DNA from: a virus
Lineage: Duplodnaviria; Heunggongvirae; Uroviricota; Caudoviricetes
DNA length: 43,500 bases
IMG/VR virus record: IMGVR_UViG_2728369187_000005
Strand: one strand, 5' to 3'
The notes beneath the pieces are model-generated. The model was not told where the DNA came from and did no database searches. It worked only from the letters and a program-made list of their open reading frames with translations. This document shows, piece after piece, positions 1 through 43,500 of this stretch (the first letter of the stretch is position 1; every line of letters begins with the position of its first letter). The translations under genes and the position numbers were made by a program.

Positions 1-165
1 CTCAACATCCATGCTGTAACGCCCGGCTTCATCCGGATTTTCAGAGGCCACCGTGTTCACCAGTACCGTGGTGCTGTTACGCTTTGCCTTCAGTTGAATA
101 GTGCAGTTCTGTATTGGTTTTCCCGCACAATCTTTCAGCACACCTGAGATTTTTACTGCTGCCAT
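1..165 (-). CDS. stfR: side tail fiber protein Stf, N-terminal 55 codons (gene continues past window start)
   Basis: Minus-strand ATG at 165 preceded by GGAGTGG; translation MAAVKISGVLKDCAGKPIQNCTIQLKAKRNSTTVLVNTVASENPDEAGRYSMDVE resembles the lambda Stf N-terminus; follows lom as in lambda. Confidence 0.75.
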   Translation of the reverse strand, partial: MAAVKISGVLKDCAGKPIQNCTIQLKAKRNSTTVLVNTVASENPDEAGRYSMDVE

Positions 166-174
166 ATCCACTCC

Positions 175-202
175 ACAAAAAAGCCCGCCTGAACCGGCGG
201 GC
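175..202 (-). terminator. intrinsic terminator downstream of lom
   Basis: Minus-strand hairpin GCCCGCC-ggttca-GGCGGGC followed by TTTTTTGTGG. Confidence 0.55.
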
Positions 203-229
203 TGTCATAACACTGTGTTACCTGGCTAA

Positions 230-829
230 TCAGAATTTATAACCGACACCCACGATGAAACCGTCAGTGCGCCAGTCGCCACTGCCGGAGCCTTCATAAG
301 CAATATCAATAGCCACGGATTCGGTCGGGTTAAACTGCACGCCAGCCCCCCACGCCAGAGACGTGTTGCTGTGGCGACCGTCATCACTTCCAGTCAGCAC
401 ATCGTGCGTTTTCCCCTTGCTGTCAGTTACGCGGAGATAATCCCCGGAAAAAGTTGAAACACGGCTGTAAGCCACACCTGCCATCGCATAAGCACTGAAC
501 CATTCATTCACGCGTACAGACGGCCCCGCCATCATGCTGAACCAGCGGTTACGCACTGAATCTTCATGCCAGCGGGTATCGCTGTAATGCGTTTTTTGCT
601 CATCTTTGGCATTGGCATAACTGAATGACGTCACCAGCCCCAGCGTGTCCGTAAATTCATAACGGTATTTCACGTTAATGCCCTTCAGGTCATCGTTGCC
701 GGGCATATCAGTATGGGTCTGAAGATACCCGGCGCTTAGTGTGGACTGATGCTCTGCTGCGCTCGCTGGCGTACCAGCGGCGACCAGCCAGACTACTGTG
801 GACAGAATAACAGCACATAATTTACGCAT
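230..829 (-). CDS. lom: Lom/Ail/OmpX-family outer membrane protein
   Basis: 199-aa ORF with signal peptide (MRKLCAVILSTVVWLVAAGTPASA) and beta-barrel-like C-terminus ending GYKF; positioned after J as in lambda. Confidence 0.85.
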   Translation of the reverse strand: MRKLCAVILSTVVWLVAAGTPASAAEHQSTLSAGYLQTHTDMPGNDDLKGINVKYRYEFTDTLGLVTSFSYANAKDEQKTHYSDTRWHEDSVRNRWFSMMAGPSVRVNEWFSAYAMAGVAYSRVSTFSGDYLRVTDSKGKTHDVLTGSDDGRHSNTSLAWGAGVQFNPTESVAIDIAYEGSGSGDWRTDGFIVGVGYKF

Positions 830-851
830 AATTACCTCTCGCTTTTCTGCA

Positions 852-878
852 ATAAAAAAGGCGCCATTTCTGGCGCCC
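852..878 (-). terminator. intrinsic terminator downstream of J
   Basis: Minus-strand hairpin GGCGCC-agaaat-GGCGCC followed by TTTTTTATT. Confidence 0.55.
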
Positions 879-896
879 GTATCTGGGTTATAAAAT

Positions 897-3800
897 TCAG
901 CTAATCGTGATGCCTGCAGTGGCTTTCTTCATCACAACAACCAGCAAATCGCTGATACTTGCTGTGGGATACCAGCCATTTACCCACCATGCTGATACAG
1001 AAAACTCCAGTGTCATTACGCCACTGCCTGCAGGCATATCAATAACACCCGTGTAAATCAGAGTATTATCCAGAGCCGTTCGGTTATAAATTTCAGCCCC
1101 GTTTTTCTTCACTATCAGGCGGCATGACGAATAAGTATCGCTATTCTCCCGTTCATGTCTGGCACCGCTGAAAGCCACCGCTGGAATAACAATTTGCCGG
1201 TCAAACGGCTGATCGTCATAAACCCTGACGGTAATGGTCCCTGATGGCCACCGCTCCGGTGCACGGGAGTCCCGGGGGAAAGCTTTGCCCACTGTTTTAA
1301 CGAGATCGCCTTCAATCTGGTTCGCGGACAGTTTTCCCAGAACCCGACAGTTCTCGTTAATCGTGACGTTGTTGAGCGTCCCGGAGTTCGCATTCACGCT
1401 ACCGCTGATATCGGCATTTTTCGCCGTCAGTCGCCCGTCCGGTGTCAGGGAAAATGCCGGAGGATTACCGCCGCTGGTAATGGTGGGAGCCGTCAGATAT
1501 TTCAGGAACACTTCATTCATGAATATCTGATCGCCCTGACCAACAAACATCGGCTTTGTGTTGCCATTCGCAGGATTAATCATCGCAATCCTGTCTGCCG
1601 CCAGCAGCACCTGACTCTGCATGCCGTCGGGGGTGTTCTCAATACCGGCACCGATACCCGCAATATAAAGGCGTCCGTCCTGCATCTGCTGCAGCTTCAC
1701 TGCCCACATGCTGTTCAGGTTATTATTTGTATCAACCTGAACCTTCTGTATCTGCTGGATCGCTGCACTCTGGTCTTCCAGTTTCTTATTGACGGTCTGC
1801 GTGATTTCATTGCTGACATCCGTAATGGACGTCCTGATTTCAGCCAGGTCAGGCGCAAGCTGACCGTTATCAATCTGCGTCCACAGCTCCTGAGCCAGAT
1901 GGGTTTTCCCTATCTCGCCTTTGAAAAAATCCAGATAGCCGGATGCATCATCACTCGGCTGACCAACAGCCTCCACGAATGCCGATTTGCCAACGGTGTT
2001 CACACTGCGAACGTAAAAATAATAATCATGGCCCGGTTTGATATTGATACTGGCGGCTATCCAGTACAGCCCCGTGCCAAGGTAGCGCGCTGTGGTTTCA
2101 ACCTGCCTGATATCGGTAATCCGCTTTTCCGAGAACCAGAACTCAAACTGTACCGTCGGGTCATAAACGGCAAGATGCGGCGTGGCGGTTATCTGAAAAT
2201 ACCCCGGCGTCAGCTCAATCCGCGACGGTGCTACCGGTGCGGCAATCCGGAACGATACCGACNNNNNNNNNNNNNNNNNNNNNNNNNNNNNNNNNNNNNN
2301 NNNNNNNNNNNNNNNNNNNNNNNNNNNNNNNNATCCGCTGCCACGGTCAGGCGAAGCAGGAAGCTCACGCCCTTCACCACCTTCGGCGTGTCCCAGCGCG
2401 CCAGCACCTGATATTCCCCGCTGTCTGCGGTGACTTCGGCGGTCAGGTGCTGCACCGCTGGCGGCGTGACACCATTCACCGTGCCGCTCTGGTCGCCGTC
2501 AAAGTGCGCCCCGTTATCCACGATGGCTTCTTTTTCCGGTACATGCTGCACGGCAGTGATGGCATACGTGCCGTCATCGTTCTCACGGATACTCACACAG
2601 CGGAACAGGCGCTGGCGCAGCGTCGGCAGCTTCAGCCCCCACACACTGTATTCTGCAACGCCGTCAGGAACCCGGTTCACTTTCACCTTAAGTCCGTCGG
2701 TGACGGACTGAACCTCCACGCTGACCGGATTACCACTTCCGTCAACCAGGCTTATCAGCGTGGTACCGGAGGATGGCAGCGTGATTTCACGGTCGAGCGT
2801 CAGCGTCCGGGTCTGGCTGTTCACCGCCAGCACGCGACCACCGGTGCTGATACCGGCATAGTCATCATCGCAGATTTCAATGACATCGCCCGGTACATGG
2901 CGAAGCCCTTCAGCACCCACGCTGAAATCCACGGTCTGCATTTCCAGCAGTTCCGTTTTAATCAGCCACAGCCCGGCGCGGTGTGCCTGCCCCCGGCTGG
3001 TACAGCCAAAGGCATCCATCTTCGTAACATTACGACCGTAACGGGCAATGGCCTGCGTATCTTCAACAAGCTCTGTCGCCGTCTCCCAGCCGTTGTCCGG
3101 GTCAATCCAGTTCACCTCAACGGCATTATGGCGGTCCTTCAGGGCGCTGAAGCTGTAGCGGAACGGCGCGCCATCATCCGGCATCACCACATTACTGCGG
3201 TTATAGGTCCACACCTTATCCGACGGTCGGTCCTGCACGAACGTCAGCGTCTGCCCGTTCCATACCGGCATACAGCGCATCGCCGAGCAGAAATCACTGA
3301 GCACATCCCACGCCTTGCGCTGTGTGGTCAGGTACGCATTACAGGTGATGCGCGGCTCCGTGCCGCCAAAGCCGTCCGGCACTGACTGGTCGCAGTACTG
3401 GCCGATGACATACAGCGCCCATTTGTCCACATCCGCCGCACCAAGACGTTTCCCCATGCCGTAGCGTGGATGGGTCAGCATATCCCACAGACACCAGGCC
3501 ATGTTATTGCTGTATGCTGGCTTAAACGTTCCGTCCCAGATACCGCTGTATTGCCGAGTCTGCGGGTTATAGTTCGACGGCACCTGCAGAATACGCCCGC
3601 GCAGATGATAATTACGGCTCACCTGCTGGCTGCCGAACTGCTCCGAATCCACCTGTACGCCGACCAGTGCCGTGTTCGGGTAGCACTGTTTCACATCGAT
3701 GATTTCGGTGTATGACGACCAGAGCGTTTTGTTCTGCAGCTGGTCTGTGGTGCTGTCCGGCGTCATCCTGCGCATCCGGATATTGAACGGGCGCGGCGGC

Positions 3801-4283
3801 AGGTCACCCACCACCACCGATGCTAGATACTGTGAGGTGGTTTTGCCTTTAATGGTGATGTCTTTTTCCGTCACCCAGCCACCATTACGCTGTATCTGAA
3901 CCAGCAGGCGGACTTCCGACGGATTCCGGTCCCCCTTTGAGGTGNNNNNNNNNNNNNNNNNNNNNNNNNNNNNNNNNNNNNNNNNNNNNNNNNNNNNNNN
4001 NNNNNNNNNNNNNNNNNNNNNNNNNNNNNNNNNNNNNNNNNNNNNNNNNNNNNNNNNNNNNNNNNNNNNNNNNNNNNNNNNNNNNNNNNNNNNNNNNNNN
4101 TATATTGGTATTCCCCTCACTGTCCAGCACCGGCGTACTGTTCAGCAGCACGCTTTTTAATCCATCCACCGGACCTTCAACCGGCCCTTCGCTGATGGCA
4201 TCGATCACACTCAGCAGCTGCGTGGACTTCAGGTTGTCCTTCGCTTCGCGCGGGGTATGCCCCTTACTGCTGCCTTTACCCAT
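897..4283 (-). CDS. J: tail tip host-specificity protein J (reading frame interrupted by two assembly gaps)
   Basis: Three ORF segments (897-2003, 2231-4120, 3885-4283) in one orientation; N-terminus [34 protein letters not shown] and internal blocks match lambda J as recalled; total span about 1129 codons. Confidence 0.85.
2263..2332. other. assembly gap (70 N) inside J
   Basis: Run of N. Confidence 0.99.
3945..4100. other. assembly gap (156 N) inside J
   Basis: Run of N. Confidence 0.99.
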
Positions 4284-4343: not shown

Positions 4344-4985
4344 TCAGCGACCAATCACCACAACCTGACCACCATCCCCTTCGTCTGCCGTGCTGATCTC
4401 CTGAGAAACCACGCGTGACCCCACGCGCATTTCACCGTACAGAACCGGCAGAACATTGCCCTGGGCAACCATGTTATCCAGTGAAGAAAAATAGGTGTTC
4501 TGTTTGCCGTTATCCGTTGTCTGTGTGCGGGGGGTTTTGGGTTTAGGGGCCAGCATCTGTGCAACACCGCCAAGCGTCATACTGGCACCGAGAGAAAACA
4601 GCAGATTACTCGCCATAATTCCTACCCCCGGCATCCATATAGCAACCGCCATAACAGCCGCCCCCAGCACAGCCTGAAACACACCGCCACTTTTGGCTCC
4701 TGCCAGACGCGGCACGATATGGATCACGGCACCATTTTCCAGCGGCTCATTAAGACGGGCAGACAATTCGGTTTCACCTGCATCACGCCCGGCAATGCGT
4801 ACCTGGTACCAGCCGTCGCTCAGTTTCTGACGAAATGCCGGGATCTGCATGGCCAGCGCCCGGATGGCTTCGGACCCCGTTTTCACTCGAAGGTCGATGC
4901 GGCGGCCAAATCGTTGTAAATCCCCGTAAAGGCAGATGCGTGCCATGCCCGGTGACGCCAGAGGGAGTGTGTGCGTCGCTGCCAT
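4344..4985 (-). CDS. I: tail tip assembly protein I
   Basis: 213-aa ORF; MAATHTLPLASPGMARICLYGDLQRFGRRIDLRVKTG and C-terminus ...STADEGDGGQVVVIGR match lambda I as recalled. Confidence 0.85.
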   Translation of the reverse strand: MAATHTLPLASPGMARICLYGDLQRFGRRIDLRVKTGSEAIRALAMQIPAFRQKLSDGWYQVRIAGRDAGETELSARLNEPLENGAVIHIVPRLAGAKSGGVFQAVLGAAVMAVAIWMPGVGIMASNLLFSLGASMTLGGVAQMLAPKPKTPRTQTTDNGKQNTYFSSLDNMVAQGNVLPVLYGEMRVGSRVVSQEISTADEGDGGQVVVIGR

Positions 4986-5626
4986 TTGTCGGTGTACCTC
5001 TCTCGTTTACTCAGTTGTTCAGGAATATGGTGCAGCAGCTCACCGTCACCACAGTAAATGGCGGCATGATTCGGCACCGATGAACCAAAACAGCACAGCA
5101 GCACATCGCCCGGCTGCGCCGCTGACAACGGCACCTGATACAGCCCTGTGGCCTCCAGATTATCCAGATAGAGATTCTGACCGTTACGCCACCAGTCATC
5201 CCCGCGATGAAAATCCGGCATCTCAATTCCCGCCAGATGGTAAGCGTCCCGGAACAGCGTGTAACAGTCCGTTACCCCGTGCTCAAAGCGCCGCCCGGTG
5301 AGATGCGGCACACAGCGGAATTTATGAATCGCCCCCCGGCAGACCAGCCACCACGGCAAATCACTCTGTACCTGCAGCCGCCGGTCGGCCTCACTCAGCC
5401 AGGGCAGACCACCGGGGTGGCTGTGGACCAGCGCCACAATCTCTCCCTGCATTTCTGCACTCAGCCAGTCCTCCGGCGACATCCGGAAATACTCCTCCGG
5501 CTCACCGGAGATATTCACGCAGGGAAAATATCTTTCCCCCTCCGGTGTTCTCACCACGAAGCCGCACGACTCCGCTGGCGCACATCGCCGGGCGTGCGCC
5601 AGAATCGCTGATTCTGTCTCTGTCAT
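4883..5626 (-). CDS. K: tail tip assembly protein K (JAB/MPN plus NlpC/P60-like)
   Basis: 247-aa ORF; HSHPGG metal-binding motif and Cys/His peptidase-like C-terminal half; overlaps I by 103 nt. Confidence 0.8.
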   Translation of the reverse strand: MTETESAILAHARRCAPAESCGFVVRTPEGERYFPCVNISGEPEEYFRMSPEDWLSAEMQGEIVALVHSHPGGLPWLSEADRRLQVQSDLPWWLVCRGAIHKFRCVPHLTGRRFEHGVTDCYTLFRDAYHLAGIEMPDFHRGDDWWRNGQNLYLDNLEATGLYQVPLSAAQPGDVLLCCFGSSVPNHAAIYCGDGELLHHIPEQLSKRERYTDKWQRRTHSLWRHRAWHASAFTGIYNDLAAASTFE

Positions 5627-5702
5627 GGGATTTACTGCGAAAGTTTGTTAATGGAAAGGAAGCTGCCAAAGTTGCCGACATTATTGCGAAACTTACAGCC
5701 AC

Positions 5703-6257
5703 TCAGGCATTTGCTGCATTTATCCTTCGTGATATCGGACNNNNNNNNNNNNNNNNNNNNNNNNNNNNNNNNNNNNNNNNNNNCGTTTCAGTCGGCGTGG
5801 ACAGTACAAAAGAGGCACTGACCGCGCTCAGTTCGCTGCACTGCTCGATGCGCCAGCGGCTGATCACCTCCTGCTCCGGATCGGCTTCGCTGTTTCCGTT
5901 GACGAAGTTCACCGCATCCAGAAAGCGGGCGTAAACCTTACGCCGGACCACCGTTCCGCCGACCAGACTCTGCAGATCTTCCGCCATCCCGGTGATCATG
6001 CCGTGCAGGTTAGAGACCGCCAGTGTCGGACGGGCAGCACTGCCCTTGCCGTTCATCTCAAATCCACTCCCCTGAATGGGATAGGCCTGATACTGCCGAC
6101 TCTGCCAGGTGACAGACTCACCTTTTTCGTTCTGCTCATTACAGAAAAAGTAGCGATCCCCGCCTACCTCGGTCAGGTCGATTTCCCAGAGCACCACGCT
6201 GGCCGACTGCTCCGCACGAATGCATTCATTCAGCGTTTCCTGTTGTATGTCCTGCAT
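5703..6257 (-). CDS. L: tail tip protein L (3' part uncertain because of a 43-N gap; probably continues to about 5630)
   Basis: ORF starting [41 protein letters not shown], lambda-L-like; sits between M and K. Confidence 0.7.
   Translation of the reverse strand: MQDIQQETLNECIRAEQSASVVLWEIDLTEVGGDRYFFCNEQNEKGESVTWQSRQYQAYPIQGSGFEMNGKGSAARPTLAVSNLHGMITGMAEDLQSLVGGTVVRRKVYARFLDAVNFVNGNSEADPEQEVISRWRIEQCSELSAVSASFVLSTPTETXXXXXXXXXXXXXXXPISRRINAANA
5741..5783. other. assembly gap (43 N) inside L
   Basis: Run of N. Confidence 0.99.
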
Positions 6258-6595
6258 CAGATCACCACTTCGTCAAACTGACACGAAAAATCGGTATAGG
6301 TGATATGTTCTGTCGCTGACCACGTTCGACACACCACTCTGATTTTTCTGTTAATACCCGGCGGGCGCCAAAAAAAAGATTTATAGCCTTCATGCCGGGC
6401 TAAAAATTTTTCAAATGAATCACGTTCATTCGCCTCAACTTTGAAATCACAGGTGAAAACGCGCAGAGAATGATTAAGTCCATTTGGACTTCGTTGCTCA
6501 TAACCATCGCCAAATCTTACAGTTTTTATCGATGGTTTATTTTCTGTTTTCATTCCATCCTCTGGTAACCAGTGAAATTCTTCCGTATTAGCCAC
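6257..6595 (-). CDS. M: tail tip protein M
   Basis: 112-aa ORF, lambda-M-like size and position, overlapping H stop and L start. Confidence 0.8.
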
Positions 6596-9984: not shown

Positions 9985-10754
9985 CTACACACACTGCTCC
10001 TGAAAATACTGGTCATCCAGTGCAAAGATCACTGCTTCAAACTCATCGCGCTCAATCAATACCGGATGAGTGGCTAAATATTCATTTATCTCTGTCAGAG
10101 ATAAAGGCAAAGGCACCCCGGTCATTCCAGCATAACGTCGGGCACGGGATATTACCGAATAGGCGTACAACAATTCCTTAAGCACCGGGTCTATTTCTGG
10201 TTCCGGTATCGGTGGCAACCTGAGTTTTTCTCGCTTCCATCTTGCCTTTTCCCCCCTTTCTCCCCCGAACTCCGATAACCACCGCTGGGCGGCTATGGCT
10301 TTTTTATCGTATCCTGCTTCTGCTGCTCTTTACCCTGGGCGATGCTGGCTGCTTCTGCAAGGATCTGCCAGTACAACTCTGGATTCTGCTTAAGCAGCGC
10401 GATCCCTCGTTCTGGCGTATATTCCAGTGCAACCTCAGCACCATTAACCAGTTCACCAACCCCTTTCCAGTCTTTCAGCAGATAACGAGCAGCATTATCA
10501 ATGAGTAAATCATCAACAGAATCTACCTCGGAAACCTTTGAAATATCAAACTCCTTCGTTCCGACGTGCAAACTGGCATCCATTTTCTCAATGTGACGAC
10601 GGATTAATGCATTACGGGAGCGATACTGATCGTTATCGCTGCTTGCCACCAACAGTTTTAACCCGTCTATAGGTTTTAAGTCCTTCATTGGCGTAAACCA
10701 GCGTTCTCCACCGATGATAATTTTCTGATTAAGAATAAACATCCATAACCTCAT
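9985..10754 (-). CDS. tail assembly chaperone GT fusion (programmed -1 frameshift product)
   Basis: The 9985-10218 ORF is open in the -1 frame across the G stop; slippery heptamer A_AAA_AAG sits at the 3' end of G. Confidence 0.6.
10293..10754 (-). CDS. tail assembly chaperone G
   Basis: 153-aa ORF immediately downstream of the major tail protein and upstream of the tape measure. Confidence 0.75.
   Translation of the reverse strand: MRLWMFILNQKIIIGGERWFTPMKDLKPIDGLKLLVASSDNDQYRSRNALIRRHIEKMDASLHVGTKEFDISKVSEVDSVDDLLIDNAARYLLKDWKGVGELVNGAEVALEYTPERGIALLKQNPELYWQILAEAASIAQGKEQQKQDTIKKP
10299..10305 (-). promoter_or_regulatory. -1 ribosomal frameshift slippery site A_AAA_AAG
   Basis: G-frame codons ata-aaa-aag-cca-tag; the -1 frame continues KKAIAAQRWLSEFGG... 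into the downstream ORF. Confidence 0.55.
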
Positions 10755-32749: not shown

Positions 32750-32771
32750 TAAATTTTTCTCCCGGTAAAAA

Positions 32772-33518
32772 TTACTTCGCAATTCCTGGCTGGACGACAT
32801 TCGGACGCCAGCTCTCCCAGTTAAAATTCACCCATCGCCCGCCGTTCATGGTCATGCGATCCATAATCCGCTCGCCGAGCAATGTTTTCATGGCCTCATA
32901 GTTCAGGTTTGTCAGCATCCCCACGCTGCGCATCGACGCTGTCCGGCGATCAACAATCTGGTGCAGTACCACCTGCTCGTTTTTCGTCTCGCGCTGAATG
33001 CCAATTTCATCAAGAACCAGCAGATCCACTTCGCACAGTTCCCGCAAAAATTTTTCGCCTGACTGCCCATCGTCATAGCTGGCGTGCAGGGCACTCATAA
33101 CATCAGCCACGGTAACCACAATCACTGTCTGACCGTCTTTCAGCAGGCGATTCCCGATAGCTGCCGCTAAGTGGTTCTTCCCGGTACCAGGTTTTCCGCT
33201 GAACGCAAAATTTGTACACCCGGTCATCAGTTCATCAGCGATGGATTTCGCCTGACTCAACGCGTATCGCTGCCCTTCGTTCTGCACCTGGTAATTCGAA
33301 AACGAGCATTTGCGGTGCAATGGCTGGATGCCAGAGCGATTCAGAATTTTTTCCACCCGCAACTGACGATTCTGACGGTTGATCTCCTCACAACGTTTCT
33401 GGCCTTCGGAAAGTTGCCACTCGCGCCACTCCGCTACCGTCTTGAATGGCGCGGTTACATGTGACGGGGCCAGTCTGCGGATACGTTCAAGAACATCGCC
33501 TGTCGCAATATTTTTCAT
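32772..33518 (-). CDS. ydaV: DnaC-like replication helicase loader
   Basis: 248-aa ORF with Walker [18 protein letters not shown] and Walker B LLVLDEIG. Confidence 0.85.
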
Positions 33519-33524
33519 GGTCAG

Positions 33525-34382
33525 TTACCCCCTGAAGCCTGGCGGGATCGCACTATCCGGTAACGAGACGGTGTTAACCTGTCGGAGTAACGTCTCAGGT
33601 CGAACACCTTTCGGCGCGAACAAGCCCTGGTATTCATTGGCGATGCTGTGTCGAATCACCTGCTCAGGTGAAAAACCCTGCTGGCGGAATTTTTCCAGCT
33701 CCCGTATCGCCCCGTTAGCGCCCTGCTCCGTTCGAATCGGTTTTCGCAATGCCTGGCGAAATTCAACCCACTCACGCCAAAGCGAGACAGAAATCCAGTT
33801 CGGCAAAGCAATATCCAGAGGGTCAAACTTTTTGACACCTCGATTCCCCCGGGGGGGATTTAGGGGGGGATCTGTTTTTAGATCTTTATCTGTATCTTTA
33901 TTAGTTGCCTTTGTGTTGACATCATGTTCAAACACCACTTCAACATCTGTTTGAACACCTGTTAAATTTCTCTCTTGTTTTGTTTGAACATCTGCTTCCT
34001 TTCTGCTTCTTCTGGCCTGAACAGATGCTTTTCCTGCGGCTGATTTTTTGGTTAATTTTTCCCTGACTGATGCCAGATCTTCCTCAATCCGAAGATGCAC
34101 CCATTCCTCGCCGTTATCGCAAAAAAACTCCTGCAAGGATGGTTCAACATCAGCCCATCGCTCGTTAGTCAGACGGGCAATTTTTGCCAGCCTGTTTTTA
34201 GGTATTGGCTTTCCTGTTTGCCAGTAATTGAACATCAGCAACAAATACGCACCATGCTCCTCTGCTGACAAATGCATGGTGTCAGCCAGGTAATCAGCTA
34301 TGTACAGTTGCATGTATGGTAATGCGGCCATAATTGCCCCGTATGATGCTGCCCGGTGGCTTAGAATAAGCACAAACAGCAT
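33525..34382 (-). CDS. ydaU: replication initiation protein (lambda O-like role)
   Basis: 285-aa ORF upstream of the helicase-loader gene; contains internal iteron-like repeats. Confidence 0.8.
   Translation of the reverse strand: MLFVLILSHRAASYGAIMAALPYMQLYIADYLADTMHLSAEEHGAYLLLMFNYWQTGKPIPKNRLAKIARLTNERWADVEPSLQEFFCDNGEEWVHLRIEEDLASVREKLTKKSAAGKASVQARRSRKEADVQTKQERNLTGVQTDVEVVFEHDVNTKATNKDTDKDLKTDPPLNPPRGNRGVKKFDPLDIALPNWISVSLWREWVEFRQALRKPIRTEQGANGAIRELEKFRQQGFSPEQVIRHSIANEYQGLFAPKGVRPETLLRQVNTVSLPDSAIPPGFRG
33925..33990. repeat. iteron-like inverted 10-mer repeats inside ydaU (candidate prophage origin)
   Basis: TGTTCAAACA at 33925 and TGTTTGAACA at 33948 and 33981, flanked by AT-rich DNA. 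Confidence 0.4.
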
Positions 34383-34394
34383 GGAAACTTTTGC

Positions 34395-34817
34395 TTAATG
34401 AACAATGACAGAATCGTCGGAAGAACCGCCGCCGCTGAAATGCGCTTTCCGGTAAACGGCTTGGACTGCATCATCATGCGCATCAATTGCCGTACTTAAC
34501 GCTTCCTGCGCCGCCAGTAATGCACGGCGTTCCAGGGTATCGAAGATGCAGAGTCGGTGACGCAGCTCGCGCGGAAGGATTGCCAGAATTGCTGGGATCA
34601 GCTTCTGAATTTTTTCTCTTTGCGTTTTCGTTTCACCTTTCAACCAACGGTGATAGATATTCTGCTGATTGTTCCAGTCCTTGCCTGGAACCAGGGGCAA
34701 TTCGCCGCCCCCCTGGCGCAGATATTCTTCAGTAATTGCATTGGCTACCCATGCCTGCCCTTTTTCGGCTGCTAGGGCAAACAACACTGATTCGATGTGC
34801 TCATGCTTGATTTTCAT
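34395..34817 (-). CDS. ydaT: YdaT (toxic early protein of the RacR-repressed operon)
   Basis: 140-aa ORF downstream of ydaS, size and order as in K-12 Rac. Confidence 0.8.
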   Translation of the reverse strand: MKIKHEHIESVLFALAAEKGQAWVANAITEEYLRQGGGELPLVPGKDWNNQQNIYHRWLKGETKTQREKIQKLIPAILAILPRELRHRLCIFDTLERRALLAAQEALSTAIDAHDDAVQAVYRKAHFSGGGSSDDSVIVH

Positions 34818-34839
34818 GAATCATTTGCCTCTTGATGTT

Positions 34840-35136
34840 TCAGGTATGATCAAATGAGGATTTGTTACTGTCATTTAGTTGCTTCACTGACATATTCTGC
34901 GAACAACATGCCGAACGTCGTAAATATGACCAGTCAATATCAGGACGAAGTTCTTCGCACAGAACCTCACCTCTTGTTGCACGTTCAATTGCTGGACATC
35001 TCTCGGCAGGCAATTGACGTACCCCTTTGATCCATTGATTTACGCTTGGAGGTGATACACCTAAAAGCCTAGCCATTGCTGATTGCCCACCGACAACAGC
35101 ACAAGCTTGCTTGAATGAATAGTTCTCTTTTTTCAT
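34840..35136 (-). CDS. ydaS: Cro-like HTH protein YdaS
   Basis: 98-aa ORF divergent from racR with HTH-like segment QSAMARLLGVSPPSVNQWIKG. Confidence 0.85.
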   Translation of the reverse strand: MKKENYSFKQACAVVGGQSAMARLLGVSPPSVNQWIKGVRQLPAERCPAIERATRGEVLCEELRPDIDWSYLRRSACCSQNMSVKQLNDSNKSSFDHT

Positions 35137-35163
35137 CGAATGAACTCCAAAAACACACAGAAA

Positions 35164-35246
35164 TATTAGGCGACGCCTAACGCAATTGTCAATAGGCTGT
35201 GCCTAATGCGGTAAGGGTAGGGATTGCCTAATGTAATGCGCATAGG
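35164..35246. promoter_or_regulatory. operator/promoter region between ydaS and racR (OR-like)
   Basis: Palindrome TTAGGCGACGCCTAA (35166-35180); 24-bp site aattgtcaataggctgtgcctaatg; extra GCCTAA half-sites; minus-strand TTGACA-18-TAATAT promoter. Confidence 0.5.
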
Positions 35247-35259
35247 AGAATATTAAGCA

Positions 35260-35736
35260 ATGCTTAGTGGTAAAGACTTAGGCCGAGCGATAGAGCAGGC
35301 CATTAACAAAAAAATCGCATCGGGATCCGTCAAATCAAAGGCGGAGGTCGCACGCCACTTCAAAGTCCAACCACCATCAATTTATGACTGGATTAAGAAA
35401 GGCTCTATAAGTAAAGATAAACTTCCAGAATTATGGCGTTTCTTTTCTGATGTTGTTGGTCCAGAGCATTGGGGGCTTAACGAATACCCCATACCAACCC
35501 CCACCAATTCAGATACAAAAAGTGAACTTTTAGATATAAACAACCTTTATCAAGCAGCCTCTGATGAAATAAGAGCGATTGTAGCTTTCCTGTTATCTGG
35601 AAATGCTACAGAACCAGATTGGGTTGACCACGATGTTCGCGCCTACATAGCAGCGATGGAAATGAAAGTGGGTAAGTATCTGAAAGCTCTAGAATCTGAA
35701 CGGAAAAGCCAGAACATCACAAAAACTGGAACTTAA
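35260..35736 (+). CDS. racR: prophage repressor RacR
   Basis: 158-aa ORF divergent from ydaS; size and position as K-12 racR. Confidence 0.85.
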   Translation: MLSGKDLGRAIEQAINKKIASGSVKSKAEVARHFKVQPPSIYDWIKKGSISKDKLPELWRFFSDVVGPEHWGLNEYPIPTPTNSDTKSELLDINNLYQAASDEIRAIVAFLLSGNATEPDWVDHDVRAYIAAMEMKVGKYLKALESERKSQNITKTGT

Positions 35737-36044: not shown

Positions 36045-36179
36045 ATGGTGCATTACGAAGTAGTTCAGTATTTGATGGATTGTTGCGGTATCACTTACAA
36101 CCAGGCTGTGCAGGCTTTACGCAGCAACGCCTGGGATCTCTGGCAGGCAGAAGTCGCTATACGTAGCAACAAGATGTGA
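36045..36179 (+). CDS. ydaG: small protein YdaG (44 aa)
   Basis: MVHYEVVQYLMDCCGITYNQAVQALRSNAWDLWQAEVAIRSNKM; below the ORF-track cutoff. Confidence 0.6.
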   Translation: MVHYEVVQYLMDCCGITYNQAVQALRSNAWDLWQAEVAIRSNKM

Positions 36180-36189
36180 GATTCGCAAA

Positions 36190-36345
36190 ATGCAAAAAAT
36201 CGACCTCGGCAACAACGAATCCCTGGTGTGCGGCGTGTTCCCCAACCAGGATGGAACGTTCACTGCCATGACGTATACCAAAAGCAAAACATTTAAAACC
36301 GAAACTGGTGCGCGCCGATGGTTGGAGAAGTACACAGTAAGCTAA
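36190..36345 (+). CDS. ydaF: small protein YdaF (51 aa)
   Basis: MQKIDLGNNESLVCGVFPNQDGTFTAMTYTKSKTFKTETGARRWLEKYTVS; convergent with sieB. Confidence 0.6.
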   Translation: MQKIDLGNNESLVCGVFPNQDGTFTAMTYTKSKTFKTETGARRWLEKYTVS

Positions 36346-36830
36346 CGATTAAAACGTCTACTCCTGCTGTTCCAGAATAACTTCATAAAATGGGAGTATT
36401 TTTCGGTGACGAGATAATAAGAACAGTTTGCGCTATCACTCTGATGTTGAATGATGCCCTTCCGTTCTAATTTTTTCATAACCGGGTTACGGCAAGGAGA
36501 AGTGATAATAAGATTTCCTGTTTTAAGGAAATCTTTAAATACAGCGATTTCTTTCTCAGATAAACGAAGCAATACTCGTTGCTCTGGTAGTAATGAATAA
36601 TGCTTTTGAATATGTGCTCGCAATCTTGAGAAGGAAATGGCGACCACGAAAGAAAAGGCAAAAACGATAATCTGAAAGAGCCAAGGTATTTCAGTATAAG
36701 CATTGAATGCGACAGTAAACTCTTTCGGTATCAGCCAGAGAGTGAGACCAAAAATGATAATCGTATACATAAGTCTTTCGAGTGGCTCGTTAGCAAAAAG
36801 TTTCAATAATGGAGTAAATACATCCAACAT
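36342..36830 (-). CDS. sieB: superinfection exclusion protein B
   Basis: ORF 36342-36953; start MLDVFTPLLKLFANEPLERLMYTIIIFGLTLWLI at 36830; membrane protein as recalled for Rac SieB. Confidence 0.8.
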   Translation of the reverse strand: MLDVFTPLLKLFANEPLERLMYTIIIFGLTLWLIPKEFTVAFNAYTEIPWLFQIIVFAFSFVVAISFSRLRAHIQKHYSLLPEQRVLLRLSEKEIAVFKDFLKTGNLIITSPCRNPVMKKLERKGIIQHQSDSANCSYYLVTEKYSHFMKLFWNSRSRRFNR

Positions 36831-37270
36831 ATCAATAACTCTCAACTGTAAGGGTATTGAAATGTTAACACAAGCTCTCGCTGTAGGGGTATAGCCGAGA
36901 CCACCGAAGCCCGGAGGTGGTGAAATAAAACCGGGCACAACACGAAGGCGCATTTCCGATATCCATAAAGAGTCGGTCTTGTCTGTTAAATTTAAATGGT
37001 GGGAGTGCGCCTCCGGTTGTAAATAACGACATTGCTGTGTGTAGTCCTGGCGGCATCAGTTTTTTCTTGAAGTTCGGCTGATGTCCGCCCTTTTTTAAGT
37101 GAATTTTGTGATGCGGTGAATGCGGCTAAGCGCACGTGGCACAGTTAAAAGTCATGTTAGTCCTTATTGGTTTGGGTGGGAAAGCCGACTGTAATTGTTA
37201 ACTGGTTGCAGTCACCTGGAGGCACCAGGCACCGCATCAACAAAGTTCATTTGTAAAAATGGAGATAATT

Positions 37271-37492
37271 ATGATTGCACATCACTTCGGAACTGATGAA
37301 ATACCACGTCAGTGTGTGACTCCTGGCGATTATGTTCTTCATGAAGGCCGGACATATATTGCCTCGGCAAACAATATTAAAAAGCGAAAACTATATATTC
37401 GTAACCTGACCACAAAAACATGCATTACTGACCGCATGATTAAAGTCTTCCTCGGTCGTGATGGTTTACCTGTAAAGGCGGAGTCATGGTGA
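37271..37492 (+). CDS. kilR: cell-division inhibitor KilR
   Basis: [32 protein letters not shown]... 73 aa, GGAG upstream of ATG. Confidence 0.8.
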
Positions 37493-37662
37493 TGACTAAG
37501 AAAATAAAATGTGCTTACCACCTTTGCAAAAAAGACGTTGAAGAAAGCAAAGCTATTGAAAGAATGCTTCACTTCATGCACGGGATTTTATCAAAAGACG
37601 AACCGAGAAAATATTGCAGTGAATCTTGTGCCGAAAAAGACCAGATGGCACATGAACTTTAA
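37486..37662 (+). CDS. ydaE: small Cys-rich protein YdaE
   Basis: ATGGTGATG start overlapping the kilR stop; [58 protein letters not shown]. Confidence 0.6.
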
Positions 37663-37736
37663 TTAATTGACTATTCGAAACTGAATTTATGCCAGAAATG
37701 GCAGGTATTCGCTCAGCCTTAATTAAGGAGAAAAAC

Positions 37737-38012
37737 ATGATTACCAATTATGAAGCCACTGTTGTAACTACCGATGACATTGTTCACGAGGTGAATCTGG
37801 AAGGAAAGCGCATTGGCTACGTAATTAAAACAGAAAATAAAGAAACCCCATTCACTGTGGTTGATATCGATGGTCCATCAGGCAACGTAAAAACACTTGA
37901 TGAAGGTGTCAAAAAAATGTGCCTGGTGCATATCGGAAAGAATCTGCCCGCAGAAAAAAAAGCCGAATTTCTGGCAACTCTAATTGCAATGAAATTAAAA
38001 GGTGAAATCTGA
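37737..38012 (+). CDS. racC: RacC
   Basis: ORF 37689-38012; start MITNYEATVVTTDDIVHEV at 37737 after AAGGAG. Confidence 0.8.
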   Translation: MITNYEATVVTTDDIVHEVNLEGKRIGYVIKTENKETPFTVVDIDGPSGNVKTLDEGVKKMCLVHIGKNLPAEKKAEFLATLIAMKLKGEI

Positions 38013-38113
38013 AAGAAATAGCCTGCGTATGGCGCAGGCTATGAACAGTGTGTATCCGGCAAGATCATTCACTGAACAAAACGAATTTTAATCTGAGTTG
38101 AGGTTAAAAAACA

Positions 38114-40714
38114 ATGAGCACAAAACCACTCTTCCTGTTACGGAAAGCGAAAAAATCATCCGGTGAACCTGACGTCGTCCTGTGGGCAAGCAACGATTTT
38201 GAATCGACCTGTGCCACTCTGGACTACCTGATCGTTAAGTCAGGTAAAAAACTGAGCAGCTATTTTAAAGCTGTTGCCACGAATTTTCCTGTCGTTAATG
38301 ACCTGCCCGCTGAAGGTGAGATCGATTTTACCTGGAGTGAACGCTATCAACTCAGCAAAGACTCCATGACATGGGAACTAAAACCGGGAGCAGCACCAGA
38401 CAACGCTCACTATCAAGGCAATACCAACGTCAACGGCGAAGACATGACTGAGATTGAGGAGAATATGCTACTCCCAATTTCTGGCCAGGAACTGCCCATT
38501 CGTTGGCTTGCTCAACACGGCAGCGAAAAACCGGTAACGCACGTTTCACGCGACGGACTCCAGGCATTACACATTGCTCGGGCTGAAGAACTACCGGCTG
38601 TTACTGCCCTGGCTGTTTCCCACAAAACCAGCCTGCTCGACCCGCTGGAAATTCGCGAACTCCACAAACTGGTTCGTGACACTGACAAAGTTTTCCCTAA
38701 TCCTGGTAATTCAAACCTGGGACTGATAACTGCTTTTTTCGAAGCATACCTGAACGCTGACTACACCGATCGAGGACTGCTGACAAAAGAGTGGATGAAG
38801 GGTAATCGTGTTTCACACATCACTCGCACGGCTTCCGGTGCTAATGCTGGCGGCGGAAACCTCACCGATCGCGGCGAAGGTTTCGTACACGATCTGACGT
38901 CACTGGCGCGCGACGTAGCCACTGGCGTACTGGCCCGTTCAATGGATCTGGACATCTATAACCTTCATCCGGCACACGCTAAACGCATTGAGGAAATTAT
39001 CGCTGAAAATAAACCGCCCTTTTCTGTTTTCCGCGACAAATTCATCACCATGCCTGGCGGGCTGGATTATTCCCGCGCCATCGTGGTTGCGTCCGTAAAA
39101 GAAGCACCAATTGGGATCGAGGTCATCCCCGCGCACGTCACTGAATATCTGAACAAAGTACTGACTGAAACCGATCATGCCAACCCTGATCCGGAAATCG
39201 TGGATATTGCCTGCGGTCGCTCCTCTGCCCCGATGCCGCAGCGAGTAACAGAAGAAGGAAAACAGGATGATGAAGAAAAACCGCAACCATCTGGAACAAC
39301 GGCAGTTGAACAGGGAGAGGCTGAAACAATGGAACCGGACGCAACTGAACATCATCAGGACACGCAGCCGCTGGATGCTCAGTCACAGGTAAATTCTATT
39401 GATGCGAAATATCAGGAACTGCGGGCAGAACTCCATGAAGCCCGGAAAAACATTCCATCAAAAGATCCTGTCGATGCCGATAAATTGCTTGCTGCATCAC
39501 GTGGTGAATTTGTTGACGGAATTAGCGACCCGAACGATCCGAAATGGGTAAAGGGGATCCAGACTCGCGATTGTGTGTACCAGAACCAGCCAGAAACGGA
39601 AAAAACCAGCCCGGATATGAATCAACCTGAGCCAGTAGTGCAACAGGAACCGGAAATAGCCTGCAATGCCTGCGGCCAGACTGGCGGGGATAACTGCCCT
39701 GACTGTGGTGCGGTGATGGGCGACGCAACATACCAGGAAACATTCGATGAAGAGAGTCAGGTTGAAGCTAAGGAAAATGATCCGGAGGAAATGGAAGGCG
39801 CTGAACATCCGCACAATGAGAATGCTGGCAGCGATCCGCATCGCGATTGCAGTGATGAAACTGGCGAAGTCGCAGATCCCGTAATCGTAGAAGACATAGA
39901 GCCAGGTATTTATTACGGAATTTCGAATGAGAATTACCACGCGGGTCCCGGTGTCAGTAAGTCTCAGCTCGATGACATTGCTGATACTCCGGCACTATAT
40001 TTGTGGCGTAAAAATGCCCCCGTTGACACCACAAAGACAAAAACGCTCGATTTAGGAACCGCTTTCCACTGCCGGGTACTTGAACCGGAAGAATTCAGTA
40101 ACCGCTTTATCGTAGCACCTGAATTTAACCGCCGTACAAACGCCGGAAAAGAAGAAGAGAAAGCGTTTCTGATGGAATGCGCAAGCACAGGAAAAACAGT
40201 TATCACTGCGGAAGAAGGCCGGAAAATTGAACTCATGTATCAAAGCGTTATGGCTTTGCCGCTGGGGCAATGGCTTGTTGAAAGCGCCGGACACGCTGAA
40301 TCATCAATTTACTGGGAAGATCCTGAAACAGGAATTTTGTGTCGGTGCCGTCCGGACAAAATTATCCCTGAATTTCACTGGATCATGGACGTGAAAACTA
40401 CGGCGGATATTCAACGATTCAAAACCGCTTATTACGACTACCGCTATCACGTTCAGGATGCATTCTACAGTGACGGTTATGAAGCACAGTTTGGAGTGCA
40501 GCCAACTTTCGTTTTTCTGGTTGCCAGCACAACTATTGAATGCGGACGTTATCCGGTTGAAATTTTCATGATGGGCGAAGAAGCAAAACTGGCAGGTCAA
40601 CAGGAATATCACCGCAATCTGCGAACCCTGTCTGACTGCCTGAATACCGATGAATGGCCAGCTATTAAGACATTATCACTGCCCCGCTGGGCTAAGGAAT
40701 ATGCAAATGACTAA
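38114..40714 (+). CDS. recE: exonuclease VIII RecE
   Basis: 866-aa ORF, same length as K-12 RecE as recalled; stop overlaps the recT start. Confidence 0.9.
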
Positions 40715-41516
40715 GCAACCACCAATCGCAAAAGCCGATCTGCAAAAAACTCAGGGAAACCGTGCACCAGCAGCAGTTAAAAATAGCGACGTGATTAGTT
40801 TTATTAACCAGCCATCAATGAAAGAGCAACTGGCAGCAGCTCTTCCACGCCATATGACGGCTGAACGTATGATCCGTATCGCCACCACAGAAATTCGTAA
40901 AGTTCCGGCGTTAGGAAACTGTGACACTATGAGTTTTGTCAGTGCGATCGTACAGTGTTCACAGCTCGGACTTGAGCCAGGTAGCGCCCTCGGTCATGCA
41001 TATTTACTGCCTTTTGGTAATAAAAACGAAAAGAGCGGTAAAAAGAACGTTCAGCTAATCATTGGCTATCGCGGCATGATTGATCTGGCTCGCCGTTCTG
41101 GTCAAATCGCCAGCCTGTCAGCCCGTGTTGTCCGTGAAGGTGACGAGTTTAGCTTCGAATTTGGCCTTGATGAAAAGTTAATACACCGCCCGGGAGAAAA
41201 CGAAGATGCCCCGGTTACCCACGTCTATGCTGTCGCAAGACTGAAAGACGGAGGTACTCAGTTTGAAGTTATGACGCGCAAACAGATTGAGCTGGTGCGC
41301 AGCCTGAGTAAAGCTGGTAATAACGGGCCGTGGGTAACTCACTGGGAAGAAATGGCAAAGAAAACGGCTATTCGTCGCCTGTTCAAATATCTGCCCGTAT
41401 CAATTGAGATCCAGCGTGCAGTATCAATGGATGAAAAGGAACCACTGACAATCGATCCTGCAGATTCCTCTGTATTAACCGGGGAATACAGTGTAATCGA
41501 TAATTCAGAGGAATAA
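40707..41516 (+). CDS. recT: recombinase RecT (single-strand annealing protein)
   Basis: Start [16 protein letters not shown] at 40707; 269 aa. Confidence 0.9.
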
Positions 41517-41572
41517 TTCAGCCTGGCGGTGTAATGCACCGCCAACTTGAAATATTTTTTATGAGAAAAATT

Positions 41573-41767
41573 ATGAGATATGACAATGTTAAACCATGTC
41601 CATTTTGTGGTTGTCCATCAGTAACGGTGAAAGTCATTTCAGGATATTACCGAGCGAAGTGTAACGGATGCGAATCCCGAACCGGTTATGGTGGAAGTGA
41701 AAAAGAAGCACTCGAAAGATGGAATAAACGAACCACTGGAAATAATAACGGAGGTGTTCATGTATAA
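41573..41767 (+). CDS. ralR: restriction alleviation protein / type I toxin RalR (Lar)
   Basis: MRYDNVKPCPFCGCPSVTVKVISGYYRAKCNGCESRTGYGGSEKEALERWNKRTTGNNNGGVHV, 64 aa. Confidence 0.8.
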   Translation: MRYDNVKPCPFCGCPSVTVKVISGYYRAKCNGCESRTGYGGSEKEALERWNKRTTGNNNGGVHV

Positions 41768-41948
41768 AATTACCGCCACTATTGAAAAGGAAGGTGGCAC
41801 TCCTACTAACTGGACAAGATATTCAAAATCTAAACTAACGAAATCAGAATGCGAAAAAATGCTCTCAGGTAAAAAAGAAGCAGGCGTTTCCAGAGAGCAG
41901 AAAGTAAAACTGATAAATTTTAATTGCGAGAAACTTCAGTCCTCGTGA
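41760..41948 (+). CDS. ydaC: YdaC-like small protein
   Basis: Start MYKITATIEKEGGTPTNWTRYSK at 41760, overlapping the ralR stop. Confidence 0.65.
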   Translation: MYKITATIEKEGGTPTNWTRYSKSKLTKSECEKMLSGKKEAGVSREQKVKLINFNCEKLQSS

Positions 41949-42047
41949 ATTGCATTGTATTCAAATTAAAACTTCATAGCTGATTATTAATAATCAACAT
42001 CGGGCGTCAATTTCAGTCTAACATTGGCGCCTGCCAGAGGTGATGCG

Positions 42048-42263
42048 ATGGCACAAGTAATCTTTAATGAAGAGTGGATGGTTGAATACGGCCTGATGCT
42101 TCGCACTGGTCTGGGGGCCAGACAAATTGAAGCATACCGCCAGAACTGTTGGGTGGAGGGCTTCCACTTCAAACGAGTATCTCCTTTAGGTAAGCCAGAC
42201 AGCAAACGAGGGATTATCTGGTACAACTATCCAAAGATAAATCAGTTTATCAAAGACTCATGA
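42048..42263 (+). CDS. xisR: excisionase
   Basis: [71 protein letters not shown]; immediately upstream of the integrase. Confidence 0.8.
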
Positions 42264-42264
42264 T

Positions 42265-43500
42265 ATGTCTAAATTACCAACAGGTGTCGAGATTAGAGGT
42301 AGATACATTCGCATCTGGTTCATGTTTCGAGGAAAACGATGTCGGGAAACATTAAAAGGCTGGGAGATTACAAACAGTAATATTAAAAAGGCCGGAAATT
42401 TAAGAGCGCTGATAGTTCATGAAATAAACTCCGGTGAATTTGAGTATTTAAGACGTTTTCCCCAGTCCAGCACTGGGGCAAAAATGGTGACAACGAGAGT
42501 CATAAAAACGTTCGGAGAGCTTTGTGATATCTGGACAAAAATTAAAGAGACAGAGTTAACAACAAACACAATAAAGAAAACGAAATCACAATTAAAAACA
42601 CTCAGAATAATAATTTGTGAAAGTACCCTGATATCACATATTCGTTATAGCGATATCTTAAACTACCGGAATGAACTGCTGCATGGAGAAACGCTTTACC
42701 TGGATAATCCAAGATCCAACAAAAAAGGAAGAACCGTGCGCACAGTTGATAACTATATCGCCCTGCTCTGTTCGCTGTTACGTTTTGCGTATCAGTCGGG
42801 ATTTATATCAACCAAACCATTTGAAGGAGTAAAAAAATTACAGCGAAACAGAATAAAGCCTGATCCGTTATCTAAAACAGAATTCAATGCATTAATGGAA
42901 AGTGAAAAAGGACAGAGCCAGAACATGTGGAAATTTGCAGTTTACTCAGGACTTCGTCACGGGGAACTGGCAGCTCTGGCGTGGGAGGATGTGGATCTCG
43001 AAAAGGGAATAGTGAATGTCAGAAGAAACCTGACGATACTTGATATGTTCGGTCCCCCAAAAACAAATGCCGGGATCCGGACAGTAACACTACTGCAGCC
43101 TGCTCTTGAAGCACTGAAGGAGCAATACAAACTGACCGGGCATCATCGCAAAAGCGAAATCACCTTTTATCATCGGGAGTACGGCAGAACCGAAAAGCAA
43201 AAACTGCATTTTGTTTTCATGCCCAGGGTGTGTAACGGAAAACAAAAACCTTATTACTCGGTAAGCAGTTTGGGGGCAAGGTGGAATGCAGCAGTAAAAC
43301 GTGCTGGTATTCGCCGCCGTAATCCGTACCATACGCGGCATACTTTTGCCTGCTGGCTGTTGACGGCAGGAGCGAACCCGGCATTTATAGCCAGCCAAAT
43401 GGGGCATGAAACTGCGCAGATGGTGTATGAAATTTACGGTATGTGGATTGATGACATGAACGACGAACAGATAGCCATGTTGAATGCGCGGTTATCATAG
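42265..43500 (+). CDS. intR: tyrosine integrase
   Basis: 411-aa ORF with C-terminal catalytic residues (R...HTRHTF...Y); stop codon is the last triplet of the window. Confidence 0.9.
   Translation: MSKLPTGVEIRGRYIRIWFMFRGKRCRETLKGWEITNSNIKKAGNLRALIVHEINSGEFEYLRRFPQSSTGAKMVTTRVIKTFGELCDIWTKIKETELTTNTIKKTKSQLKTLRIIICESTLISHIRYSDILNYRNELLHGETLYLDNPRSNKKGRTVRTVDNYIALLCSLLRFAYQSGFISTKPFEGVKKLQRNRIKPDPLSKTEFNALMESEKGQSQNMWKFAVYSGLRHGELAALAWEDVDLEKGIVNVRRNLTILDMFGPPKTNAGIRTVTLLQPALEALKEQYKLTGHHRKSEITFYHREYGRTEKQKLHFVFMPRVCNGKQKPYYSVSSLGARWNAAVKRAGIRRRNPYHTRHTFACWLLTAGANPAFIASQMGHETAQMVYEIYGMWIDDMNDEQIAMLNARLS

Follow-up and report, generated by a model that had tools for sequence, protein, structure and literature searches.

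A prophage beside ttcA that probably keeps the undeleted architecture of prophage Rac from Escherichia coli K-12

From what kind of phage does the defective Rac prophage in Escherichia coli K-12 descend? The question is raised by a 43,500-nt stretch of tailed-phage DNA, IMG/VR record IMGVR_UViG_2728369187_000005, which we analysed at its full length and call the window. An earlier note, made from its letters, had taken it for a structurally intact Rac-like prophage. We consider it very likely that the window holds most of a full-length Rac prophage with RacR immunity, a lambdoid temperate siphovirus at the 5' end of ttcA, and that it has the undeleted source architecture of K-12 Rac. Its best single match, the prophage of strain 23CRST032 (NZ_AP045802.1 2642815-2686470), serves below as the reference prophage and as a proxy for what lies outside the window.

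DNA alignment of the window to K-12 Rac (NC_000913.3 1411899-1434958), which the earlier note had proposed as a check, found the two collinear in gene order. The lom/stf end apart, ~15.4 kb is shared at 98.6–99.9% identity, and K-12 Rac equals the window element minus three deletions (27.5 kb in total) plus an IS5 insertion sequence in lom (Table 1). Q, the holin and endolysin genes, the terminase and head genes and most tail genes are missing from K-12 and present in the window. Both have the same ttcA integration module, RacR/YdaS/YdaT immunity, RecET, kilR, sieB, ralR and trkG, the last placed in each between Rz and the ParB-like (ynaK) gene. The K-12 Rac genes that the earlier note had recognised, from intR to trkG, are all there, with products essentially identical to those of K-12. 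Protein identity is 100% for RacR, YdaS, YdaT, RecT, XisR, SieB, RacC, YdaV, TrkG and RzoR, 99.5% for RecE, 99.3% for IntR and 97.7–99.6% for RalR, KilR, YdaE, YdaF, YdaG and YdaU; RecE, RecT and the racC, kilR, sieB and ralR products match at 98.4–100% at K-12 protein lengths.

The K-12 deletion junctions sit within genes, which explains four K-12 'genes' as fragments. K-12 ydaW joins residues 1-151 of a 253-residue DUF1627 protein to other sequence; ynaK corresponds to the N-terminal 86 residues of a 263-residue ParB-like protein; ydaY is the C-terminal part of tail chaperone G; and ynaA (tmpR) is residues 1-311 of the 1077-residue tape measure protein. The lomR gene of K-12 is split by IS5. 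One could read the change in the reverse direction, with K-12 Rac near the ancestral state and the window a recombinant that gained its late genes from other lambdoid phages. Such phages are mosaic, identity to K-12 is ~93% at the lom/stf end versus ~99% elsewhere, and the related prophages Sp10 and KingRac (described below) share the int arm while carrying unrelated late modules. We judge that reading very improbable, given that each of the four K-12 products aligns with no more than the beginning or the end of a full-length window protein, that the ParB-like and DUF1627 proteins span their PHROG profiles end to end, and that in K-12 the junctions fall inside genes and rzpR is a known pseudogene.

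Over the prophage genes, K-12 and the window show a synonymous divergence of 0.0063. For the chromosomal flanks, compared between K-12 and the proxy strain and not with the window's own flanks, the value was 0.080 (ttcA and dbpA) and 0.037 (uspF and ompN), so that the prophage lies 6- to 13-fold below the flanking chromosome of that strain. The prophage copies therefore share a much younger ancestor than the surrounding chromosome. This implies recent horizontal spread of the prophage, and the low divergence argues against Rac as an anciently fixed, vertically inherited fossil.

How much of the element does the window hold? Its borders look like the output of prophage prediction and not like biological ends, because it starts 165 nt (55 codons) into stf, stops with the final base of intR's stop codon, and shares that terminal base with many IMG/VR provirus contigs. 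It includes neither att (attachment) site, nor the body of stf, nor tfa. Four runs of N mask parts of J (2263-2332 and 3945-4100), L (5741-5783) and hok (29411-29483). Their lengths of 70, 156, 43 and 73 nt are wrong, the real ones in the nearest genome being 131, 188, 116 and 63 nt; window coordinates are therefore 156 nt short, and no reading frame can be followed through the runs. When the 58 coding sequences of the reference prophage were projected onto the window, 54 were wholly readable, with no internal stops and at most two amino-acid differences from NZ_AP045802.1. The description of the prophage as structurally intact thus holds for its gene complement and for the readable genes, which are open; it went too far for what lies outside the window (the stf body, tfa and both att sites) and for what is masked within it (in J, L and hok).

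Artificial borders and N-runs could also mark an assembly chimera, or two adjacent prophage remnants read as one. We find this scarcely credible. The whole window matches a ttcA-adjacent prophage at 99.7–100% identity in several complete E. coli genomes, contiguously over the same 43.5 kb in closed sequences. Of 5,426 complete genomes, 682 carry at least 80% of the late half (1-22000) and 188 at least 80% of the early half (22001-43500). The element is common in sequenced E. coli, and its exact sequence is already in RefSeq genomes and in GenBank predicted phages. In two near-identical prophages (NZ_CP095529.1 and NZ_CM137002.1) the late region carries ISEc31, of the IS3 family, an insertion that the window lacks.

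The late region, ~25 kb long, shows no lesion in its readable genes. A Q-like gene, a full lysis cassette, terminase, portal and capsid had been read from the letters, and profile searches recovered all of them, none with a stop among the 54 readable coding sequences. No insertion sequence interrupts lom, as had been noted; it encodes the full 199-residue Ail/Lom protein where K-12 has IS5. Tail chaperone gene G ends in ATA AAA AAG CCA TAG, with the slippery sequence A AAA AAG near 10305 in the correct phase, and past it the -1 frame, read from the sequence, stays open for ~100 more codons, so that the programmed frameshift site is kept. Among the tail genes, those for the tube, G/GT, the tape measure, M, K and I are intact; J and L, masked in part, are in frame where they can be read, and 55 codons of stf are in the window. 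The three readable pieces of J lie in the reference frame without a stop and differ by one amino acid from the 1159-residue J of 23CRST032. The late genes are under purifying selection: pooled over them, the ratio of nonsynonymous to synonymous polymorphism (pN/pS) relative to IMG/VR relatives was 0.22.

These late genes bear on another account, in which the prophage is gene-complete and functionally grounded, yields no infectious particles and is kept because its cargo genes benefit the host. We take this to be possible without favouring it. Absence of lesions from ~25 kb of late genes, the preserved frameshift site and the low pN/pS count against it, as does the low synonymous divergence with the recent horizontal spread that it implies. 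Further points on both sides emerge from the regulation, size and excision of the element.

Family assignments in the late region rest on PF06576, PF06530 (27.4 bits) and phrog_753 for the 26612..28040 block, on PF03245 and PF05106 for the lysis cassette (24191-25473), on PF18906, PF13554 and phrog_169, 161, 493 and 1514 for 10803..13520, and on Lambda_tail_I, Prok-JAB with NLPC_P60, and Phage_min_tail over the tail-tip genes (4344..6595). A consensus scan placed terminator-like hairpins at 26531-26506 and 25597-25576, downstream of the Q gene and before the holin gene. The tail-tip region has 93–95% DNA identity to phages recorded with laboratory E. coli strains as their hosts, for example mEp332 and Ayreon. 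In Escherichia ruysiae NZ_CABVLQ010000001.1 the J-lom-stf region is 93–96% identical, and the 60-nt lom-stf intergenic terminator is identical.

Table 1. Segments of the window compared with K-12 Rac, and genes of the window in order of position.
Feature	Position	Strand	Evidence or remark
Shared with K-12 Rac, lom/stf end	1-587		~93% identity; IS5 in K-12 here
Missing from K-12 Rac, segment 3	588-8886		8,299 bp; ~38 unmatched K-12 bases at junction
Shared with K-12 Rac	8887-10644		98.6% identity
Missing from K-12 Rac, segment 2	10645-22204		11,560 bp; 2-bp microhomology at junction
Shared with K-12 Rac, trkG segment	22205-24635		99.88% identity
Missing from K-12 Rac, segment 1	24636-32299		7,664 bp
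Shared with K-12 Rac	32300-43500		99.7% identity
stf, first 55 codons	1..165	-	N-terminus of 791-residue 'prophage tail fiber N-terminal domain' coding sequence, NZ_AP045802.1
lom, outer-membrane protein	230..829	-	PF06316 1-199/199, E 3.5e-126
J, tail tip/host specificity	897..4283	-	two N-runs
Tail tip I	4344-4946	-	
Tail tip K	4883-5626	-	
Tail tip L	5632-6257	-	one N-run; readable pieces in frame, no stop
Tail tip M	6257-6595	-	
Tape measure, 1077 residues	6588..9821	-	TMP_2, TMP_4, Tape_meas_lam_C
Tail chaperone G, 153 residues	10293-10754	-	profiles in next row
G with -1 frameshift extension T	9985..10754	-	G and T: phrog_313 and phrog_1189/PF23812
Tail tube	10803-11765	-	
Connectors: tail terminator, Neck1/tail completion, head closure Hc1, adaptor Ad1; 58-residue protein	within 10803..13520	-	
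P22-type coat	13563-14702	-	Pfam, PHROG
Scaffold DUF6651	14801-15565	-	Pfam, PHROG
MuF-like head morphogenesis	15670-16782	-	Pfam, PHROG
Portal DUF4055	16766-18172	-	Pfam, PHROG
Terminase large subunit	18175-19476	-	Terminase_6N and Terminase_6C, full profile coverage
Terminase small subunit	19457-20551	-	Terminase_2/phrog_51
69-residue open reading frame upstream of terminase	within 18175..20764	-	
TAGT-family glycosyltransferase, 310 residues	20742-21674	-	PF20691 E 3.4e-35; phrog_842 'beta-glucosyl-HMC-alpha-glucosyltransferase'
ParB-like protein, 263 residues	21667-22458	-	PF02195; phrog_620 positions 3-217 of 217
trkG, potassium transporter, cargo gene	22596..24053	-	100% identical to K-12 TrkG; island of low guanine-plus-cytosine content
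Rz	24191-24655	-	
Rz1/rzoR, embedded in Rz	24250-24435	-	100% identical to K-12 RzoR
Endolysin	24652-25128	-	phrog_90
Holin, lambda-S type	25132-25473	-	Phage_holin_3_1
Q-like antiterminator DUF1133	26612-27154	-	PF06576 1-175/176; Phage_antitermQ just above cut-off
YbcO nuclease	27151-27441	-	
DUF1367	27441-28040	-	
DUF1971/TehB-like	28908-29249	+	absent from K-12 Rac
hok-type toxin gene, partly masked	from 29332	-	absent from K-12 Rac
KilA-N/BstA-like	29990-30763	+	absent from K-12 Rac
Replication and neighbours: 167-residue protein, DUF977, DUF1627 (253 residues, full length), ydaV (DnaC-like), ydaU	30884..34382	-	profile matches
Immunity: ydaT (cII-like) and ydaS (Cro-like) on -, racR repressor on +	34395..35736	-/+	Pfam; 100% identity to K-12
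Early-left genes: ydaG, ydaF, sieB (-), kilR, ydaE, racC, recE, recT, ralR, rcbA/DUF1187	36045..41948		
xisR excisionase and intR integrase	42048..43500	+	

The proxy genome shows both ends of the element: a ttcC' remnant beside uspF on one side and ttcA on the other, with the att-bounded prophage ~53.3 kb long. The 26-bp core AAGAAAGAACAATACAACCTGAACAA is identical at both ends, in the same arrangement as in K-12. In the arm beyond the window lie stf and two more tail-fibre genes, a DinI-like gene with a frameshift, one hypothetical gene and sitABCD. This iron/manganese transporter operon lies inside the att-bounded prophage, between the tail-fibre genes and the ttcC'-side att, and the DinI-like gene adjoins it.

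Gene families suggest the following life cycle. RacR would repress divergent promoters, with YdaS and YdaT as the analogues of Cro and cII (PMC5917428). YdaU and the DnaC-like YdaV would replicate the genome, and the Q-like DUF1133 antiterminator would switch on the late operon. A Terminase_6-type enzyme would then fill a head with P22-type coat, of the HK639 type, which would join a lambda-like tail; holin, endolysin, Rz and Rz1 would lyse the cell. IntR and XisR are expected to recombine at the 26-bp core. Of two promoter-like sites, found as consensus matches, the one for ydaS stands at 35192-35163 (-) and the one for the leftward operon at 35847-35875 (+). The 123-bp racR-ydaS intergenic region differs from K-12 by a single nucleotide: position 35210, immediately upstream of the ydaS promoter-like site, is G in the window and A in K-12. 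The rcbA/ydaC homologue (41760-41948) encodes 62 residues versus 69 in K-12, with a T/A difference at 41946 within the stop codon.

What would induce such a prophage? In the Pfam search RacR gave a weak helix-turn-helix match and no Peptidase_S24 autocleavage domain, and a pattern search of the 43.5-kb window found no LexA box (CTGT-N8-ACAG). The window thus shows no SOS-inducible lambdoid switch of the lambda cI/LexA type. Because the S24 domain and the LexA box are both lacking, classical SOS induction is not expected, and derepression of RacR probably does not run through RecA/SOS. Published work points the same way. The Sp10 repressor also lacks a peptidase motif, and mitomycin C does not induce this prophage, which nevertheless excises and moves into K-12 (PMC2669165); KingRac is weakly induced by mitomycin C (PMC6731689); and excision of K-12 Rac is driven via RpoS and XisR (PMC4632033). 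For these reasons the mitomycin C induction proposed in the earlier note would discriminate poorly. The Rac-cured indicator proposed there for plaque assays is a sound choice, given that the window and K-12 encode RacR and SieB proteins with 100% identity.

Excision would leave an attP-type junction, AATCAACAAATTACA-core-GTAAGGGC, with a phage arm on each side of the 26-bp core. This junction, sought as a 56-mer, is present in six metagenome contigs and six IMG/VR contigs. Metagenome contig IMGVR_UViG_3300039370_000009 (50,494 nt) has the fibre-assembly region, the sitDCBA arm, the core and the intR arm. Three tiles of it match the window, at 99.8% (36318-43500), 99.9% (27287-30350) and 100% (13973-15190); its ends were worked out arithmetically, and a lom 40-mer gave no match in that contig. 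Metagenome contig OBZT01000231.1 has the same attP structure, with an intR arm 99.9% identical to the window. In both of these contigs sitABCD is joined to intR across attP.

We had looked on the junction as proof of excision and downgraded it, since the same junction arises in tandem lysogens. The 56-mer turned up as well in several isolate-derived contigs and within chromosomal contigs of 121 kb and 346 kb. In these it points to tandem Rac-type double lysogens, which suggests that such lysogens are not rare; Sp10 likewise integrates beside Rac in tandem (PMC2669165). The attP junction is evidence of integrase-mediated recombination after the first integration, and is not proof of free phage DNA. 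Contigs that carry it and are near-identical to the window represent either excised DNA or tandem lysogeny. On this indirect evidence, taken with the low synonymous divergence and the pN/pS of the late genes, we regard the element as probably still mobile.

Two sets of records that might have stood for viable phage were set aside. The ON4705xx-ON4706xx 'phage' records are PHASTER predictions from draft genomes, and 'Salmonella phage SPF_0923' includes uspF, ompN and nifJ, which are host genes. Siphovirus particles did appear after mitomycin C induction of strain Eco_611, which carries this late region; they have not been linked to this prophage.

The reading of the window as a full-length temperate phage has several points against it. 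The element is known here from sequence alone, and the predicted status of the ON records removes one apparent support. With att sites, stf and tfa outside the window and ~500 bp of J, L and hok masked, completeness of the window copy rests on the proxy genome. No SOS-type induction route is visible in the window, and the attP junction is found in chromosomal contigs as well. At ~53.3 kb with sitABCD, the proxy element is longer than the 49.6-kb genome of HK639, which has a homologous capsid, so packaging capacity may be a problem.

Some of the same observations speak for a grounded prophage, one that no longer makes infectious particles: the lack of a cleavable repressor and of a LexA box, the excess size over HK639, and the ease with which tandem arrays give the attP junction. 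Comparable Sp10 lysogens of K-12 make no visible particles (PMC2669165), the same locus is occupied in hundreds of genomes, and the DinI-like gene of the unseen arm is frameshifted in the proxy genome. Possible causes of grounding are a regulatory lesion, a genome grown oversized by trkG and sitABCD, self-targeting by the BstA-like protein if aba is damaged, and a hidden lesion in the masked or unseen parts. Set against this, besides the intact late genes, are the attP-bearing metagenome contigs near-identical to the window.

Several accessory modules were lost from K-12 Rac with the deletions. The protein encoded at 29990-30763 matched PF04383 (E 4e-27), phrog_6287 over its full length (E 2.7e-89) and the PADLOC BstA model (E 3e-21); prophage-encoded, with an N-terminal KilA-N domain and the BstA C-terminal domain, it has the features of the BstA abortive-infection family. 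A DNA element, aba, is required for replication of BstA-encoding prophages (PMC8585504). The DUF1971/TehB-like and hok genes (28908-29457) lie between the nin-like region and the BstA-like gene.

A ParB-like gene followed by a TAGT gene lies just upstream of the terminase genes. The earlier note had called the first of these ynaK-like. The gene is there; it is no remnant, being a continuous open reading frame for 263 residues. NCBI annotation of the reference genome splits this continuous frame into a 'ynaK pseudogene, missing C-terminus' and a 'transcriptional regulator', probably from using the K-12 YnaK fragment as the naming reference. In its ParB domain the protein is similar to the N-terminal parts of phage DNA methyltransferases (phrog_498, PADLOC MTase_II). 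Genes of a TET or hydroxymethylcytosine pathway were not seen in the window.

Is the element new? The idea of a full-length Rac relative is not: full-size or active Rac-like prophages were already reported between 2001 and 2019 (Sp10/CP-933R, Rac-SA53, KingRac), the window element is of this already-known kind, and its exact sequence is deposited. Rac was stated to be complete in other strains as early as 2001 (cited in PMC6379469), and full-sized Rac-like prophages carry LT-II toxins (PMC5917428).

Sp10/CP-933R of E. coli O157:H7 (NC_002695.2 1921509-1972663) lies at ttcA, and its int-to-ydaG arm has 98.8% DNA identity to the window. Its repressor, like RacR of the window, lacks a peptidase motif, and it excises spontaneously and transfers to K-12 (PMC2669165; PMC4632033). 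By contrast, Sp10 matches 44% of the window, has another repressor/cro pair and no trkG, and its late module is unrelated, the annotation listing a prohead protease as well as terminase and portal genes other than those of the window.

KingRac, an active Rac-like phage from a mouse commensal E. coli (NZ_CP054662.1, ~2.859-2.907 Mb), takes the place of K-12 Rac in the mouse gut (PMC6731689, PMC12251178); it forms particles, lysogenises K-12 there and integrates at ttcA (PMC6731689). Its IntR has 99% amino-acid identity to that of the window, its XisR bears the same RefSeq protein accession, and it has ydaU/V-type replication genes and a DUF1367/DUF1364/DUF1133 region like those of the window. 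It differs in that 36% of the window is matched, its repressor and major capsid protein are unrelated, its head is of lambda type, exo/bet/gam stand in place of RecT, and trkG, kilR and sieB are absent. With 36% and 44% shared, other immunity and other heads, neither KingRac nor Sp10 is the same phage as the window element.

Rac-SA53 (KU052037), a full-sized Rac-like prophage encoding LT-II, has recE, recT, intR and ydaU as in the window (PMC5917428). It differs in matching 40% of the early half at 91.7%, and was not among the matches listed for the late half. The vB_EcoS-666R9/673R7/613R10 records (ON470614 and others) cover window 4724-43500 at 99–99.9% identity. They are PHASTER-predicted from draft genomes and truncated in the tail genes, and their Rac nature went unrecognised; the immunity genes of the vB_EcoS-666R9 set have the sizes of those of Sp10 (a 420-bp repressor and a 255-bp cro gene), not of racR/ydaS. 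The viable lambdoid phage HK639 (NC_016158.1) has the portal, MuF, scaffold, coat and a small downstream protein at full length, syntenic and at 50–75% amino-acid identity, while any relationship is distant or lacking for its terminase, connectors, tail shaft, early genes and integrase. Judged by these comparisons, the window is closer to K-12 Rac than any published 'Rac-like' phage is, and has the same immunity.

Current understanding of prophage biology is unchanged by this element, which is unsurprising and useful as a reference. The window supplies a base-pair-level map of what K-12 Rac lost, and proper identities for the K-12 y-genes ydaW (DUF1627), ynaK (ParB-like), ydaY (chaperone G) and ynaA (tape measure), each a fragment of its full-length counterpart. 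Beside this deletion map, the useful by-products are the evidence against Rac as an ancient fossil and the recognition of ParB-like/TAGT and BstA-like modules lost from K-12. A strain carrying the element would be a natural system for RacR, YdaS/T, KilR, SieB, RalR and RecET under K-12 Rac immunity, a use for which KingRac is unsuited because its repressor and several accessory genes differ. More tentatively, Rac may be no multi-million-year-old fossil and instead a recently deleted copy of a still-circulating, SOS-unresponsive temperate phage that moves trkG from one E. coli lineage to another, in some copies together with sitABCD, and has an uncharacterised ParB-like and TAGT pair that could modify its DNA.

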